Origin: Escherichia phage V18
Sequence record: NC_041937.1
Length of the DNA: 64,000 nucleotides
Strand: one strand, 5' to 3'
Below, piece by piece: positions 1,164 through 27,382 of this stretch; position 1 is the first letter of the stretch; each line of letters starts with the position of its first letter. The position numbers were made by a program, and so were the translations under genes. Under the pieces are notes generated by a model. The model was not told where the DNA came from. It did not search any database and saw only the letters and a program-made list of their open reading frames with translations.

Positions 1164-2963
1164 TCACCTCTGTCTGTCCAGCCACCAGTTCTGTAGTGAC
1201 ACTGTAGTGTAGCACAGTTCATTGGGTCCCCCTACAGTCCTGGCACTGGTACCACCACAAGCTATCGGTAGTGGTTCCCATTTGGCTTTCCGGTTGTTAT
1301 AAACACCCCATTCCAAACTGCCGTTACCGGATTCGTCCATCCCGCCATCCCAGATGACCATCTTGGCGGCTTTCTTAGATCCCCAGAAACCTCTTTCTGC
1401 TCCTGAACTGCGGATCCATTCTCCAAGTCCCCAGTTTGCCAGCTGACCGTTCAGATCACCAACCTGCATATATTTAGGACAATCTAAGACCCCATCCTCA
1501 CGGAAGCCTAAATATCTATGAGTTTCAGATCCTTTTGCGCCTTTGTGCAGGTGGATTGTCAACCAAGCCTTATTGTCGTTTCTTACCTCAGAGTAGATCC
1601 TATACCCATGCTCAAGGACACCGTCAGCGCTGTATTTGTCCCCGTTAACAATACCTGATGCTGACTTAACATCAGCAGAACTTTGAGACAGGTAAAGGTG
1701 CCCAAAGGTAGGGGAGTTTCTAGACCCGAGACCGATGTGTGCTCTAAAGGTATCATCGTTACGAGGTCTGACCATCGGCTGCCATGCAGTCCACTGATTT
1801 GTGTTGGCCTGGTAGGTTCTCAAATACCAAACATCTACGTTAGAGAATGGATAGTATTCCTGACGACAACCTGTACCGCCGTTAGCATTGTTCTGCCAAA
1901 CAATCAAGTGACCAGCACCAGAACCTGCAGGGTAACCATTTGCCTCAGTTGCATAGGCAGTCATCGGCTGGTAGTACACACCATCCTGATTACCAGTTAA
2001 GTTATTGATATTGAAATTTGGCTCAAGGGCTGCACGTTGCTTATAGAAAGCCCCCAAGTTAATGCGTGAACCTGCGGCATCCCTGGCACCTGTGCCGCCT
2101 TGCTCTATAGCAAGAGGTTGCCACGAAGCTGTTTGTTGGTTCCACATACCCCAACGGCCTGTTGCATCAAGCTGCAAGTACCCTGCTGTGTTTAAATCAT
2201 CTCCAGCACGGATAACTGTTCTTGTTGGGTTGTTTGCCTCTAGGCGTTTAAATTCATCACGAAGTGCTATTCTTTTTGTTGTTGCTACACCGTTGGTTAC
2301 TGCAATGGTATACATGGCTCCGGTGGTAGCGCCACGGAAAATACCATCAACAGTTGTAGTATCACGACGAGATACCACACCATTCAGAAATTTTTCACCA
2401 GCTGCTACAGAAGGGTAGTTGGTAGTTCTTCCCTCTTCAATAACTGCAGGGCCAACAAAGTTATCAAGGTGAATAACATCGCCTACAGTGTGCACTGTAC
2501 CAAAATCTACACGCTGTGCAAGGGCTTTAGCATCGTTAGCTGTCTGAACAGTAACATCCATTACATCCTGGACAGACTGCCCTTCGGCTGTCATAATCAT
2601 AGATGCGCCAATGGTAGATTCCAGCTCCTCCCTTAAGGACGGATCTGTATATACCATCCATGCAGCGTCAGTAATCCCACCATCGGAGTACGGTGAAGAT
2701 AGTGCAGGGACAGTGTGTGGAAATTCGCCTTTCCAACGCAGGTAGAGGTCTTCCTCTTCGAAGTAGGCAAAATCCATTGGGCCGTTTAACTTACCACCTT
2801 CCTTAAAGGAGATTACATGAGAAACAGTCCCATCCACATGGACAACATCGCCAATTTTTACACGACGAGTCAGGTCTGGTTGTTGAACAACCAGGTAATC
2901 ATCCTCTGTCACTGCGGTAGTGGCAGGAAGAGATTCAATTCTGACAACTTTAATATCAGCCAT
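1164..2963 (-). CDS. tail fibre protein
   Basis: 599 aa; N-terminus DDYLVVQQPDLTRRVKIGDVV shared with ORF 5598-6266; GGTGA(R) ... NLG fibre motifs (QGGTGARDAAGSRINLGA, ACGGTSAR). Confidence 0.7.
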   Translation of the reverse strand: MADIKVVRIESLPATTAVTEDDYLVVQQPDLTRRVKIGDVVHVDGTVSHVISFKEGGKLNGPMDFAYFEEEDLYLRWKGEFPHTVPALSSPYSDGGITDAAWMVYTDPSLREELESTIGASMIMTAEGQSVQDVMDVTVQTANDAKALAQRVDFGTVHTVGDVIHLDNFVGPAVIEEGRTTNYPSVAAGEKFLNGVVSRRDTTTVDGIFRGATTGAMYTIAVTNGVATTKRIALRDEFKRLEANNPTRTVIRAGDDLNTAGYLQLDATGRWGMWNQQTASWQPLAIEQGGTGARDAAGSRINLGAFYKQRAALEPNFNINNLTGNQDGVYYQPMTAYATEANGYPAGSGAGHLIVWQNNANGGTGCRQEYYPFSNVDVWYLRTYQANTNQWTAWQPMVRPRNDDTFRAHIGLGSRNSPTFGHLYLSQSSADVKSASGIVNGDKYSADGVLEHGYRIYSEVRNDNKAWLTIHLHKGAKGSETHRYLGFREDGVLDCPKYMQVGDLNGQLANWGLGEWIRSSGAERGFWGSKKAAKMVIWDGGMDESGNGSLEWGVYNNRKAKWEPLPIACGGTSARTVGGPNELCYTTVSLQNWWLDRQR

Positions 2964-7685: not shown

Positions 7686-8679
7686 ACCTCCTCAGTTTTG
7701 TCAACAACTCCACCCACTGTTTCCCCAAGGCCAAGCTCTGTAGTGTAATCACCGCCTTCTATGGTGCCCTTATGATGCACCGTGATCACCTTATAGAAGC
7801 CTGTATATTGCTTGCTTTTAAGATAAATAGTGGACTCTGGGAGGATAGCTCCGTTAAGGCATGTGGTTACAGTAAGACCGACATCCTCTCTCGGGTTTTT
7901 CTTTTTCTTACGTGTGCCACCTTTCGCAGCAGCTTTAGCTTTTCGTTTTTTAGCAGGCTCGGGGTTTTTAGGGTGGGAGATCCGTGCATCCCAGACTCTG
8001 CACTTATTTCAAACACAGAGTCCTTGAACCTTTTTCCAACCTTGGTCCAATACAAAGCCCCATCCTGAACGCTAAATGTGGAGTTGGTCAGTCTTGCAAA
8101 CCTGCGGAGGTTCTCTGCAGTGTTTCCAGAGAAAGCCATAGAGTATTGCAAAGTCTGGTTTCCAAAACCAACAACCCTACCTTTTGGCAAGTTCATATCC
8201 TTCAGTAGGTCATTAAGCACAGAGTTCAGAGGTGTGCCTTTCTGATAAGATCTTGTGCTTTGGCACTTAATGATGTTCTCAGTACCATCCCCGAAGATGA
8301 ACTTAGTTTTTCTGGTCGGACCTTCCCATCTGTCTTCAACAAACTCTACAGTTCCGGAGAATATCAACTGGTTCTCATCATCATAGCCAGCTTCAAACAT
8401 AACTGCAAGGGCATCAGCCTGATGCATATCCAGATAGTTAACTGTATCGTCAGACAGGTTGTAAACTGTCACATAACCTTTGTTTGGCTCTTTGGTATTG
8501 TCCTTTTGTATGTCAAACTCTATATTGGCGGCACCAGTGTCTGAGCTAACTTCATAAACTCCGGAATCACTCTCCCCTTTCTTTTCAACAGATTTTGGGA
8601 TATTGGTTTTTGATTTACCGCCATGCTCTACCGGACGACCAAACAATAATCGCCATGTTCTACGTCTGTACTCTGCCAT
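7686..8679 (-). CDS. putative baseplate/tail protein, apparent frame change near 7930-7990
   Basis: 270 aa ORF 7867-8679 ends in an implausible basic tail; another frame stays open to 7686 and encodes a Lys/Ala-rich linker plus C-terminal domain. Confidence 0.4.
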
Positions 8680-15445: not shown

Positions 15446-15829
15446 TCAACGGCACTCTTTGAGGTGAGATTGTTGAATTGTTAGAGTAGGCAAAGCACGA
15501 TCCAGAGGGAAATACTTATCATAAAACATTGGAAGGTTTATTGCTTGCAATACTCTGCTAAGTGCAGCATATGCCCTGCCACGATAAGCTGTTAGCAGAT
15601 AGGTAACAGTGTAACTGTGGGTGACACAAGCATTACCCTCCGCATCTTGAAACTCATTATCTTCCCAAGTGGTAGGATTGATCGCCAAGGTTTGTAAAAG
15701 TACAAACTCACCTTCCGGCTTCGGTATGGTAGAGCTTTCTGCCAGAACTACAGTTCTTCCTGTGGCAACCTTGACGAGCTTAGCAATGGTTGTTTCAAGA
15801 TCAGAAAAAACTTTTTCGAAAGCTTCCAT
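15446..15829 (-). CDS. hypothetical head-tail joining/completion protein
   Basis: 127 aa ORF in coupled array between capsid and sheath genes. Confidence 0.4.
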   Translation of the reverse strand: MEAFEKVFSDLETTIAKLVKVATGRTVVLAESSTIPKPEGEFVLLQTLAINPTTWEDNEFQDAEGNACVTHSYTVTYLLTAYRGRAYAALSRVLQAINLPMFYDKYFPLDRALPTLTIQQSHLKECR

Positions 15830-18330: not shown

Positions 18331-18363
18331 AAATAAAAAGGGGAGGGGGAGAACCCCCTCCCC
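18331..18363 (-). terminator. rho-independent terminator after major capsid gene
   Basis: Perfect 10 bp stem GGGGAGGGGG-AGAA-CCCCCTCCCC followed by TTTTTATTT on minus strand. Confidence 0.6.
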
Positions 18364-18387: not shown

Positions 18388-19212
18388 TTATTCACCACCT
18401 TTCAGAGTTGCTTTAACAACCAGCTCTGGACGGGTGTTAACTGCCAGCATGGAAGTTTCAGATTCAATCTTCTCTTCACGCAGGTATGCAGAGTGTTTAT
18501 ACCACATGTACAGTTCCTGTGCTGGAGTGTTTGCTTCGTTAACATCGTCTGCCGGAGCAAAGTGCAGCTGGAACATCTGATCAATACCCATCGGCAGAAT
18601 GCGAGCTTCTTTCTTAGGAATATTGCCAGAGATATCTTCGATAAAGGTGATACCTTTATGCTCAAACACACGGTATACGCTGTCTTGACCGCCAGCACCC
18701 AGACGGCGACGCAGAGGTTCCTGAGCAGAGCCGTAATAGGTGTATGCCAGTTCTACCAGAGGGTCATACTGACAGGTTGTGTCACCAGGTGCATAGGATT
18801 TACCCAGAATAGCCTGGAACAGCGCTTTCTCACGCAGTGCTTCATGAGAAACACGGATACGGCGAACAACGCGGGTTACTACGTCCTGAACAGTTTTCGG
18901 AGCATCAGGTGTGAAGTAACGACGGAAGTTCTGAACATCTGCTGCGGTGATGCCTTTGTCCAGAGGGAAGAACGGGATGTTCAGGTTTTTAACCTGAGCA
19001 CGTTCACTACCAACGTAGTTACGCTCACCACCACGACGGCGTGCCGGAATGTCGGTTACAACTTCATCAACACGCTCAATCTGAGCAATTGTTGAGGTGC
19101 CGAGACGGGTTTCGAACAGATCCATACCAGTAATCAGGCGGAATTGACGCGGAACAAGGTCCAGAGTAGCACCTAAATCAACAATGCCAAATTCATCTTT
19201 ACGAGTAATCAT
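18388..19212 (-). CDS. putative major capsid protein
   Basis: 274 aa; strongly biased GC-rich codon usage unlike neighbours (high expression); downstream of portal and head ORFs; perfect 10 bp GC hairpin terminator follows. Confidence 0.55.
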   Translation of the reverse strand: MITRKDEFGIVDLGATLDLVPRQFRLITGMDLFETRLGTSTIAQIERVDEVVTDIPARRRGGERNYVGSERAQVKNLNIPFFPLDKGITAADVQNFRRYFTPDAPKTVQDVVTRVVRRIRVSHEALREKALFQAILGKSYAPGDTTCQYDPLVELAYTYYGSAQEPLRRRLGAGGQDSVYRVFEHKGITFIEDISGNIPKKEARILPMGIDQMFQLHFAPADDVNEANTPAQELYMWYKHSAYLREEKIESETSMLAVNTRPELVVKATLKGGE

Positions 19213-19296: not shown

Positions 19297-19380
19297 TTAT
19301 TTCCCCCGTTAAACTCTTATGCTTCAGCAGATCCAGATACTCTTTAGTTTTGGTTGCGTCCCTTGATCAGGTTCCCTTCT

Positions 19381-19728
19381 TTATCGAAGAGATCCCAGCC
19401 TACCAATACAAGACTCTGCGTCAGCTTGCGCCCATTCCCAATCAGGATGCTCTTTAGCCCAAGCCTCCTCTTCAATCTCAAAACCAAGCATGTGTGCAAG
19501 TGCTTTAGCATCATCATACCACATATCGAAGAAACGACGCAAGTATTCTTCAAAACTAAGCTCCACAGTAACTTGGCGAAGTGCCTTAACAATATCGTCT
19601 GTTAACTGCTCAGGCTTAAGATCACTCTTCATCAAAAGAGATACAGGTCTGTTGTTAGCGCTATAGCCTTGCGCCTTATGGCACAGGGCAATCCCCTTCT
19701 CTTTAATAGTAATCGTTTTTTCAGACAT
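19381..19728 (-). CDS. hypothetical head protein
   Basis: 115 aa acidic ORF between portal and capsid genes. Confidence 0.4.
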   Translation of the reverse strand: MSEKTITIKEKGIALCHKAQGYSANNRPVSLLMKSDLKPEQLTDDIVKALRQVTVELSFEEYLRRFFDMWYDDAKALAHMLGFEIEEEAWAKEHPDWEWAQADAESCIGRLGSLR

Positions 19729-21873: not shown

Positions 21874-23429
21874 TTAGATAAAACGCTTGAACATAGAAGG
21901 TGATGAGATTGATGGAATCACACAAGGAAGTGCTACCTCCTCTTTCTCCAGGAAATTAATCGCAGAAGCTACACAGTCGGCCCAGTCGTCTTTTCTGTTA
22001 AATGTTGATCTTTCCCCGTTGAATTTTTCAAGTTCAGTCAGAAATGCTTCCAGAGTATCAGGATGGAAACTGGATTTTACAATCCTCACCATTCCTTGTT
22101 GGGCAAGATTGGCAAAAGGTGAGAACCTTGTCAGTTTAGATTTGTTGGAAGGCATTGGGTCTTCTTCAACCCTAAACCCTTCGGCAAGCAAGGATCTGGA
22201 GGAGGTTAAGAACTCACTCTTACCTGCCTGACCGGGGTCCACAGAGAATACGATTATACAATCATCACCATCAAACTGCGCCTGTTTCCTGATGATCACA
22301 TCTCGTTCACCAGCCTTTTTACAGAACTTGCCTTCCAGACCTGTGGAATACCTCCCGTCATCCACGTTCTCAGGACAATAATCCCCGGACAGGTAATAAA
22401 AGCCGTCGCTATCTTTACTTACCTTGACACTGGCGGTAAAGTCAGGAAATTTATTACCGGAAGTTCTCTCGGTTCCTGCTTTATCCCATGCCCTGCAAGA
22501 CACTGATCCAAGGGGTACTCTATCGGCATCACGAAGGAAAGATCTTTGAAAATAGTTTGCACCCTCAGGCTTTGCAAACCAGTTACCATGGAGAAGCTGA
22601 GCTTTTTCAAGCTCGGGCAGACCTTCAAGGAAAGCAAGGTATTCTGGGTTGTCTCTTAAGCAGACAGGATTATCGAAGATTGTTGCGCCTATAAACGAGA
22701 ATGACAACGGTCTCGGCTTGATCTCTACACCCAGTCCGTTAACCGTGGTGTATTTCTCTATCAACTCTTCTTTAGAGTCTCCCCAGATAAATTCACCGTC
22801 GCGTCGGATAAAATATCTTTTCTTACCGCATTTCTCCGGATCTGGATACCCTTCATCGTCCAACCACCACCTAACCAGTTTGGCAAGCATGTGTTCTGAA
22901 TCGGGGTTACAGCTGATAACCATTCTTGATGGATACTTTGACTGAGATCTCAGACGAGACATCAGATAGTCTATCTGCTCCCATTCGAACTGCGTGCCTC
23001 ATCGAAGCAAACCAAGCAAACCATGGTATACTCAAGCCCTTGATGGTTAAGCTTATCTTGTACATACTCCATGTGGCAGTATTTTACAACAGCTCCCTTT
23101 TTGCTTCTATCCCACTTGCCAGTGTTCGGATCAAACCGTGGAAAAATGAACTTATGATCCTTCTCTCTGAACTTTGGCTTAATGTTTTCAGGCAGATCAC
23201 TATAAATAGCTACTGCTTTAGGCCATAGTCCACCCTCACCTTCCAACTGTGGGGTTGTTCTTCGGAACATAACCACAGAGCTGTGGGGGTCATCAATAAT
23301 TTTAAGTGGCATCAATTGCAAGAGGAACGACTTGCCAGACCCTGCGGCACCGCCGATTACCAAAATATCTGCATCGTTTTCGAGGATCATCTTCTGCTTT
23401 TCAGAACACGGTCCGTAAATCTTAGACAT
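21874..23429 (-). CDS. terminase large subunit, split into two frames (ATPase ORF 22971-23429, nuclease ORF 21874-22962)
   Basis: Walker A GGAAGSGKS and Walker B CLVCFDEA in N-terminal ORF; other frame continues ...EWEQIDYLMSRLRSQSKYPSRMVISCNPD after a single frame change. Confidence 0.75.
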
Positions 23430-24531: not shown

Positions 24532-24608
24532 TGGTCTCCACGGAGTGATTCGAACACTCGACCTCCTGATCCCAATGGTTTATCTCTACCAAGCTGAGCT
24601 ACGCGGAG
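24532..24608 (-). tRNA. tRNA-like gene, Pro(UGG)-like, with non-pairing 5' anticodon-stem strand
   Basis: Hand-folded: acceptor CTCCGCG/CGTGGAG, T-arm GAGTG-TTCGAAT-CACTC, encoded CCA, loop ATTGGGA, but AAACC cannot pair with TCAGG. Confidence 0.45.
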
Positions 24609-24619
24609 TATTTATTATT

Positions 24620-24694
24620 TGGTGGCCCTGGGTGGAATTGAACCACCGTCTGGCGATTATGAGTCGCTTGCTTGAACCTTCCAGCTACAGGGCA
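24620..24694 (-). tRNA. tRNA-Met (anticodon CAT)
   Basis: Hand-folded cloverleaf: anticodon loop CTCATAA, T-arm GGTGG-TTCAATT-CCACC, encoded CCA; position 1:72 is a T:C mismatch. Confidence 0.6.
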
Positions 24695-24770
24695 TGGTGC
24701 TGATAGCAGGACTCGAACCTGCAACCTATTGATTACAAATCAATTGCACTACCAATTGTGCTACATCAGC
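24695..24770 (-). tRNA. tRNA-Thr (anticodon TGT)
   Basis: Acceptor GCTGATG/TATCAGC, D-arm GCAC/GTGC, anticodon stem ATTGA/TCAAT with loop TTTGTAA, T-arm GCAGG-TTCGAGT-CCTGC, CCA encoded. Confidence 0.7.
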
Positions 24771-24867
24771 AAAAAGGTGCTAGGTGATGGAATCGAACCA
24801 CCTATGTATTCAACGACCAATAGATTTACAGTCTACACCGCTACCTCTACGGGATAACTCCCCAATT
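24771..24867 (-). tRNA. tRNA-like element with Tyr(GUA)-type anticodon arm; acceptor stem not resolved
   Basis: Anticodon arm GTAGA-CTGTAAA-TCTAT and T-arm GGTGG-TTCGATT-CCATC present, long variable region, but 5' and 3' ends do not pair; may be degenerate or mis-folded by me. Confidence 0.3.
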
Positions 24868-24942
24868 TGGCACCCCGTACTGGACTCGAACCAGTGTCAA
24901 CGGCTTAGAAGGCCGCTGCTTTATCCACTAAGCTAACAGGGC
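24868..24942 (-). tRNA. tRNA-Arg (anticodon TCT)
   Basis: Acceptor GCCCTGT/ACGGGGT with G:U pairs, D-arm GCTT/AAGC, anticodon stem GCGGC/GCCGT with loop CTTCTAA, T-arm ACTGG-TTCGAGT-CCAGT, CCA encoded. Confidence 0.65.
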
Positions 24943-25000: not shown

Positions 25001-25028
25001 ATATTACACTGTTAAGCAAAGTTTGTCA
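25001..25028 (-). promoter_or_regulatory. sigma70-like promoter upstream of tRNA cluster
   Basis: Minus strand TTGACA-N16-TAATAT about 60 nt upstream of first tRNA 5' end. Confidence 0.45.
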
Positions 25029-25038
25029 AGAAAATATT

Positions 25039-27322: not shown

Positions 27323-27382
27323 TGTCCGTATCACGGACAGTTAGTGTCCGTATGACGGACAGTAGTGTCCGTATCACGGACA
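27323..27382. repeat. three phased palindromic repeats (iteron/operator-like array)
   Basis: TGTCCGTATCACGGACA at 27323-27339 and 27366-27382, TGTCCGTATGACGGACA at 27345-27361; 7 bp arms, 3 bp centre, 21-22 bp phasing. Confidence 0.7.

Follow-up and report, generated by a model that had tools for sequence, protein, structure and literature searches.

The tRNA cluster at positions 24532-24942 of Escherichia phage V18 is probably an ordinary rV5-like cluster with three private lesions, which are most likely artefacts of sequence reconstruction; on comparison with related genomes, we give this reading a probability of about 60%. The lesions are a 402-bp gap, a replaced block of 8 nt and the loss of a single base. 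The original prediction had described five tRNA-like elements, two of which did not fold canonically and were proposed to be decaying tRNAs, tRNA-like RNAs with another role, or errors of hand folding. In our reading, these two odd elements are private lesions of known genes, most likely artefactual, with nothing new in them.

The window, that is, the whole 64-kb stretch of V18 DNA analysed in this study, belongs to a Vequintavirus (an rV5-like coliphage), and its 701-nt tRNA region together with two segments of ~20 kb matched more than 100 Vequintavirus genomes at 96-98% identity. Compared with rV5_ev147 (ev147), 216 synonymous and 81 non-synonymous SNPs were observed, distributed over the codon positions as 48/31/218, and since they are overwhelmingly synonymous, the backbone can be regarded as natural sequence. 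The tRNA elements all lie on the minus strand at the positions already proposed for them. Upstream, on the same strand, an intact sigma-70-type promoter was found at 25001..25029 (TTGACA, 17 nt, TAATAT; 10 of 12 consensus matches), which matches the P(tRNA) annotated in rV5 and is conserved in the alignment with relatives. In rV5 and ev147, the cluster reads Arg(UCU), Tyr(GUA), Ser(UGA), a tRNA-like element of 99 nt, Thr(UGU), 'Met'(CAU) and Pro(UGG), and six tRNAs are listed for rV5 (PMC3606486). The V18 cluster resembles this rV5/Vequintavirus cluster (Kropinski et al. 2013, PMC3606486) in its position between the spanin/gp069 genes and ORF74, in its promoter and gene order, and in its tRNA sequences, which are 96-100% identical; it differs in being without 402 bp (the 3' part of Tyr, Ser and the 5' part of the tRNA-like element), in an 8-nt block in Pro, and in the loss of 1 nt from the CAU tRNA. 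The Arg and Thr genes are intact, the CAU tRNA is still recognised despite its one-base loss at position 1, and every base of the Pro-like and Tyr-like elements outside the block and the gap has its counterpart in the family genes. Judged by this gene order and identity, the V18 cluster is the published rV5-type tRNA cluster.

During the detection analysis, default ARAGORN called three tRNAs only, namely a tRNA with anticodon CAU that it labels 'Met' (24620..24694), tRNA-Thr(UGU) (24695..24770) and tRNA-Arg(UCU) (24868..24942), and the same three were returned by the Rfam model RF00005 at its gathering score of 29 bits. The tRNA-Arg is intact with an encoded CCA (67.8 bits) and identical in rV5 and ev147, and the tRNA-Thr is likewise intact (76.2 bits) and identical to the ev147 copy. 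The clean folds that had been read by hand for Arg, Thr and Met were thus recovered by both programs, and Met and Thr are directly adjacent as described, the former ending at 24694 and the latter starting at 24695. Neither the Pro-like nor the Tyr-like element appeared in the default ARAGORN output or in the Rfam gathering run. In the Pro-like element (24532-24608), the acceptor stem forms all of its 7 bp, and a T arm, the discriminator A and an encoded CCA are present; its anticodon-stem strands AAACC and TCAGG form 0 of 5 pairs, exactly as first noted, and G10-A25 is mismatched. With permissive filters, which were used for the two odd elements, Rfam cmscan aligned it (24535-24608) locally at 32.1 bits, skipping the anticodon arm and flagging the D-stem mismatch, compared with 66.4 bits for the canonical rV5 tRNA-Pro, whose anticodon stem is CCUGA/UCAGG. 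The Tyr-like element (24776-24863) displays D, anticodon (GUA) and T arms, with a 5-bp anticodon stem; the earlier reading of an unpaired acceptor also holds, as GGGGAGT at the 5' end and ACCTAGC at the 3' end are not complementary and the MFE and centroid structures contain no acceptor helix. The permissive Rfam search gave it 26.1 bits over model positions 10-63 only, which is below the gathering score. In the MFE folds neither odd element adopts a cloverleaf, and shuffled versions of the two sequences fold about as stably (z = -0.81 and -0.82).

These results leave next to no probability that the two elements are canonical tRNAs whose boundaries or folds were missed, through an intron or an alternative register. 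Very relaxed ARAGORN thresholds do report them, one as a 91-nt 'tRNA-Tyr' and the other as a 'tRNA-???' whose anticodon has 2 nt. Against this, default ARAGORN, its intron mode and the Rfam gathering run find nothing, no group I intron model matches the window or the endonuclease-bearing allele discussed below, and the alignment with relatives identifies which canonical bases are missing, by which the reading is refuted. The relaxed, intron and mitochondrial modes of ARAGORN were also tried as a source of candidates and were rejected, having yielded implausible calls only, with a 2-nt anticodon or 'introns' of 150-250 nt on the wrong strand. The software check proposed with the original prediction, which envisaged five canonical tRNAs with other boundaries, ended with ARAGORN finding three, and errors of hand folding are refuted as an explanation, because ARAGORN, Rfam and the MFE folds agree with the hand folds.

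Aligned with rV5 and ev147, the Tyr-like element proves to be no single gene: it starts as the 5' two-thirds of tRNA-Tyr and continues as the 3' third of the tRNA-like element that the family carries. V18 is identical to the rV5 trnY, which ARAGORN calls as a tRNA, from G1 at 24863 through ...TCTATTG at 24818 (24818..24863, minus strand), a stretch that comprises the acceptor 5' strand GGGGAGT, the D arm and the anticodon arm. From 24817 onwards it equals the 3' part of the tRNA-like element (24776..24817, minus strand), with half of the variable arm, GTCGTTGAATACATA, then the T arm and ACCTAGC-A-CC, followed by TTTTT at 24771-24775. The junction (24817..24818, unstranded) is a clean, single switch point with 0-1 nt of microhomology as read. 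Here 402 bp that all relatives possess are missing from V18, namely the variable arm, T arm and ACTCCCC of Tyr, tRNA-Ser(UGA) together with a spacer on each side of it, and the first two-thirds of the tRNA-like element, counted from its 5' end. The natural 3' partner of GGGGAGT, ACTCCCC, falls within these missing bases, and the acceptor strands of the Tyr-like element are unpaired because they come from two different genes. In the relatives, the complete tRNA-like element folds as a cloverleaf (z = -3.66), and other records label it tRNA-OTHER, tRNA-???(atcc) or tRNA-Lys. Translocation of the missing segments was considered and rejected, since no copy of the 402 bp occurs elsewhere in the 64-kb window. 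The junction is private to V18: a junction-centred megablast found it in none of 50,697 phage records, and exact-pattern scans found it in neither the IMG/VR nor the JGI metagenome contigs. With no competing acceptor helix, the T-arm region of the chimera extends to an 8-bp hairpin followed by U5, which scored as terminator-like, and one may speculate that, if the RNA exists, this hairpin might weakly terminate transcription ahead of the Thr, CAU and Pro genes.

The Pro-like element (24532..24608, minus strand) is, by alignment, Rfam and folding, the family tRNA-Pro(UGG) with a replaced block, its acceptor stem, T arm, anticodon and CCA being intact. The block (24576..24583, minus strand) reads ATAAACCA in the tRNA sense against the canonical CGCCTGAT, that is, eight consecutive mismatches to rV5 and ev147 with the length unchanged, and it replaces D-stem base 25, base 26, the whole 5' strand of the anticodon stem and loop base 32. 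In context, the canonical GGTAGAG-CGCCTGATTT-GGGATCAGG has become GGTAGAG-ATAAACCATT-GGGATCAGG in V18. Within the normally conserved part of the 22 kb aligned to two relatives, no other run of mismatches is as long, and a 54-nt stretch of the canonical tRNA-Pro is 100% identical in ~100 vequintavirus records and nearly identical in the tRNA-Pro genes of T4-like phages. The V18 version was detected neither in the 50,697 phage records by megablast nor in the IMG/VR or JGI metagenome contigs by exact-pattern scans. A local gene conversion or inversion was rejected as the source of the block, there being no local template: ATAAACCA and its reverse complement have no other occurrence in the window. 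An IMG/VR scan with a tRNA-Thr motif recovered only two vequintavirus contigs, both with the canonical Pro; the other matches to that motif are unrelated phages sharing the tRNA-Thr sequence.

The same 10-nt slot of tRNA-Pro is occupied by a 356-nt insert in 14 related genomes, comprising Escherichia phage navn (MN850642) and 13 other records, A142 included. The insert begins ATAATCAAAG, terminates CCATAACTTT and encodes a 113-aa protein with a Pfam HNH match (E = 4.9e-5). All ten bases of the V18 slot, ATAAACCATT, equal the first or the last 10 nt of this insert, in the pattern L L B L R L R L R R; for the eight changed bases, a match of this kind to the cassette ends would arise by chance with a probability of ~0.002, and the left boundary coincides exactly as well. 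From this match, we conclude that the V18 block derives from the HNH cassette. The V18 disruption resembles the navn allele in starting at the same base after GGTAGAG (tRNA position 24/25) and in ending at the same GGGATCAGG; it differs in that V18 is without the HNH ORF, the slot holding only 8-10 nt, and in a flanking SNP haplotype closer to HNH-less phages (ev147, APECc02). No endonuclease ORF is present in the V18 slot, which is only 10 nt long. Neither the V18 window nor the HNH-bearing allele matched group I intron or other intron models, and excising the 356-nt insert leaves tRNA-Pro 10 nt short, so that the tRNA is not restored; the insert is therefore read as a free-standing endonuclease gene that destroyed tRNA-Pro. 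Six distant homologues of the navn HNH protein (59-65% identity), on five IMG/VR contigs and in Salmonella phage 7t3, were all located in tRNA clusters, where no split tRNA halves were found around them and the copies stand free between tRNA genes. With reference to the literature, homing endonucleases drive rearrangements in phage tRNA regions, as exemplified by T4 SegB (PMC2330249; PMC13096335). SegB and the navn gene are alike as selfish endonuclease genes resident in, and reshaping, a phage tRNA cluster, and homologues of the navn protein also occupy the tRNA clusters of unrelated phages; they differ in that SegB is a GIY-YIG enzyme encoded between tRNA genes, whereas the navn protein is a predicted HNH enzyme encoded inside one.

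The third lesion affects the CAU tRNA (24620..24694, minus strand), in which one G of a GG pair is gone (indel at 24693): relatives read ...CACCA-(T/A)-GGCCCTG..., whereas V18 reads ...CACCA-T-GCCCTG.... ARAGORN consequently takes the spacer T as position 1, which places U1 opposite C72, while the CAU tRNAs of rV5, ev147 and navn have G1-C72. The loss lowers the Rfam score from 60.0 to 51.1 bits, and a megablast against the 50,697 phage records found the GG>G version in none. The 1:72 mismatch reported for Met is accordingly present in V18 as read. Its suggested resemblance to initiator tRNAs finds no support: bacterial initiators have C1xA72, whereas the V18 U1/C72 arises only through the missing G of a homopolymer, relatives are paired G1-C72, and the anticodon stem AGCGA/UCGCC is without the three consecutive G:C pairs of an initiator. 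The closest E. coli gene is an annotated tRNA-Ile(CAU), at 81.6% identity over the full length, which shares the first six acceptor pairs (the seventh differs) and an identical anticodon arm, CAT included, and differs from the family tRNA in the D and T arms. This E. coli gene is of the ileX/ileY type, the lysidine-modified decoder of AUA, and by its similarity to it the family 'tRNA-Met' is most likely an AUA-decoding tRNA-Ile(CAU).

The one-base loss belongs to the same class as other indels of V18. Approximately 11 single-base differences in homopolymer length, mostly shortened G/C runs, were counted in 22 kb against both closest relatives, and such indels split the genes of the tail-completion protein, the prohead-protease inhibitor, TerL, a 305-aa protein and an endonuclease, although both halves of the split genes are still 97-100% identical at the protein level. 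Split genes with undecayed halves are a signature of sequencing error and not of decay. The capsid module shows further gaps: the major head protein has lost 186 nt without a change of frame, the decoration gene 354 nt, almost its entire length, and one gene has gaps of 367, 83 and 116 nt, between which islands of 41 nt and 34 nt remain at 98.7% identity to relatives. No phage record contains the 186-nt junction, which is private too, and searching for exact copies of the truncated capsid protein gave a negative result. As written, the V18 sequence cannot be that of a viable phage, and with frameshifts in essential genes and island-like gaps, its private indels are not trustworthy. A left/right interleaving was also considered at the TerL intron site and was rejected, since it does not account for the 9-nt duplication there.

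The lesions of the tRNA cluster are most likely products of sequence reconstruction and not states of a living phage. The source phage would really carry the HNH gene in its tRNA-Pro, and its consensus would have been derived from a reference without the insert; stretches that had no coverage would have been left out and their flanks joined, and homopolymers would have been miscalled. The insertion would thereby have collapsed into a garbled block of the same length made of the insert's two ends, and the dropped stretches would have left the capsid module as islands of sequence. Some observations argue against an artefact. Slot positions 5-8 alternate R-L-R-L, which is not the smooth left-to-right switch of a simple pile-up, the 100% identical flanks of the 402-bp gap meet at one clean junction, as they would after a genuine deletion, and the SNPs on either side of the cluster form a haplotype nearer to that of HNH-less phages (ev147, APECc02) than to that of navn. 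Moreover, the block can be read as ATAA, the left end of the cassette, plus ACCAT, from 9-13 nt before its right end, plus T, which would amount to two real deletions inside the cassette.

These observations favour a different and rather doubtful account, in which the lesions are real: a defective or lab-adapted rV5-like lineage would have deleted the 402 bp and lost the HNH gene imprecisely, which would leave an endonuclease-resistant scar and true pseudogenes. The SNPs look naturally selected, rearrangement of phage tRNA regions by homing endonucleases is known from T4 SegB (PMC2330249; PMC13096335), and a real loss of tRNA genes is plausible since tRNA-Pro is dispensable in the 14 HNH-bearing genomes. 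On the other hand, TerL, the tail-completion gene and other genes are frameshifted with undecayed flanks, the capsid gaps are island-like, and no second genome carries any of the lesions. A real scar would also need two deletions, or one deletion and two substitutions within 6 nt, and would have to restore the original length of 10 nt exactly. The more specific proposal that the block is an 'empty but scarred' allele left by the loss of a tRNA-Pro-targeting HNH gene, with the 402-bp deletion as collateral repair damage, we consider unlikely on the sequence comparison. As for the suggestion of decaying tRNAs, it is right in that a tRNA-Tyr and a tRNA-Pro are damaged, and it fails in that the damage is no gradual decay, consisting of one 402-bp gap and one 8-nt block that perhaps do not exist in the real phage.

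Whether the lesions are artefacts or real, the two odd elements are not functional tRNAs or special RNAs. RNase P processing, CCA maturation and charging all depend on an acceptor helix, and without one the chimera would not be a substrate for RNase P or a synthetase. The anticodon stem presents G35/G36 to ProRS, and the Pro remnant is without that stem. If the lesions are real, both elements are dead pseudogenes, and only the Arg, Thr and Ile2-like CAU tRNAs would work. The contrary view, that both are functional non-canonical tRNA-like RNAs whose unusual folds were selected, for instance for a regulatory task or as bait for host nucleases that attack anticodons or variable loops, is very improbable. 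It draws on the use of phage tRNAs as tools of counter-defence, such as tRNA-Tyr against the variable-loop-cleaving Septu (PMC13096335), on the co-transcription of both elements that is still expected from the cluster promoter, and on the acceptor stem, T arm and CCA kept by the Pro remnant. Nevertheless, neither sequence occurs in the other phage records, viral contigs or metagenome contigs searched, more than 100 relatives keep the canonical genes, the folds are no stabler than shuffled sequence (z about -0.8), and a gap or a cassette remnant explains each element base for base. The idea of tRNA-like RNAs with another role is hence unsupported, both elements being private, one-off derivatives of family tRNA genes with no conservation or covariation.

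This study carries a caution: two tRNA-like RNAs that looked exotic turned out, on alignment with relatives, to be the junction of a gap and an endonuclease site that has collapsed or been scarred. Given the frameshifts in essential genes of V18, other oddities in the window are not to be trusted without the reads. Our data also point to a clade of HNH endonucleases that is consistently associated with phage tRNA clusters and that lies inside tRNA-Pro in the navn-type vequintaviruses. If the scar were true, a single tRNA gene of the vequintaviruses would be seen in all three states of a homing cycle, being intact in ~100 genomes, occupied in 14, and scarred and resistant here, a modest step beyond the T4 SegB case.

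The window shows single-base differences in homopolymer length from both closest relatives. Runs are one base shorter at 15504, 17907, 22997, 24224, 24693, 27159, 29598, 34610 and 35169, and one base longer at 18345, 19303 and 26064, with further length differences of this kind at 7971 and 11560. These differences frameshift the genes of the tail-completion protein, the prohead-protease inhibitor, TerL, a 305-aa protein and an endonuclease, and both halves of the frameshifted genes retain 97-100% identity. The homopolymer differences of the window look like sequencing error. In TerL, where the lesions span 22997-23014, the 1-nt loss coincides exactly with the point at which an insert of approximately 900 nt, bearing an endonuclease, is present in APECc02 and rV5. 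A tandem duplication of 9 nt (AAGCAAACC) follows 12 nt downstream of the loss; together, the loss and the duplication break the gene into ORFs of 152 aa and 362 aa.

Larger gaps relative to all relatives were observed in the capsid module, at 18763, 19227 and 19320-19395. The major head protein has lost 186 nt in frame, leaving an ORF of 274 aa as against 335 aa, at a junction that is private to the window. The decoration gene is almost entirely gone, with 354 nt absent compared with relatives, and the gene that follows it displays gaps of 367, 83 and 116 nt, between which islands of 41 nt and 34 nt remain. The junctions of these capsid gaps exhibit 0-5 nt of microhomology. Elsewhere, an in-frame 60-nt gap with AGC microhomology was noticed in a Sir2-like gene (30779), and at 27354 an intergenic region with a repeat/hairpin (GTCCGTAT...GACGGAC) has a gap of 21 nt.

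Within the tRNA cluster, a conserved tRNA-like element of 99 nt is found between Ser and Thr (rV5 1878-1976, minus strand), and its 3' part is retained in the window at 24776-24817. Its cloverleaf fold includes a D stem of 6 bp and a very long variable arm; the anticodon arm is odd, with a loop of UUUUUAA or shorter, and the 3' end reads ACC and then U5 in place of CCA. The fold has z = -3.66, the element reaches 35.5 bits in Rfam tRNA, and existing annotations name it tRNA-OTHER, tRNA-Lys or tRNA-???(atcc). Its T arm is lengthened to an 8-bp hairpin and followed by GCACC-TTTTT (24781-24804, minus strand), and this mid-cluster site scores as intrinsic-terminator-like.

In 14 vequintavirus records, tRNA-Pro is interrupted at tRNA position 24/25 by a gene for a 113-aa HNH endonuclease, currently annotated as hypothetical; it occupies 479-820 on the minus strand of phage navn and is likewise present in L020 and L021, two of the MG0656xx records. 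Five IMG/VR contigs and Salmonella phage 7t3 encode homologues with 59-65% identity, in every case within a tRNA cluster. The MG0656xx records, approximately 18-20 UNVERIFIED GenBank entries titled 'Campylobacter phage', are rV5-like coliphage genomes classified as Vequintavirus, and their Campylobacter host label is probably wrong.

The 'tRNA-Met(CAT)' of the family (window 24620-24694; rV5 1721-1795) shares its first six acceptor-stem pairs with E. coli tRNA-Ile(CAT), and the anticodon arms of the two are identical. Judged by sequence, this tRNA is probably an AUA decoder, misnamed through annotation by anticodon alone.
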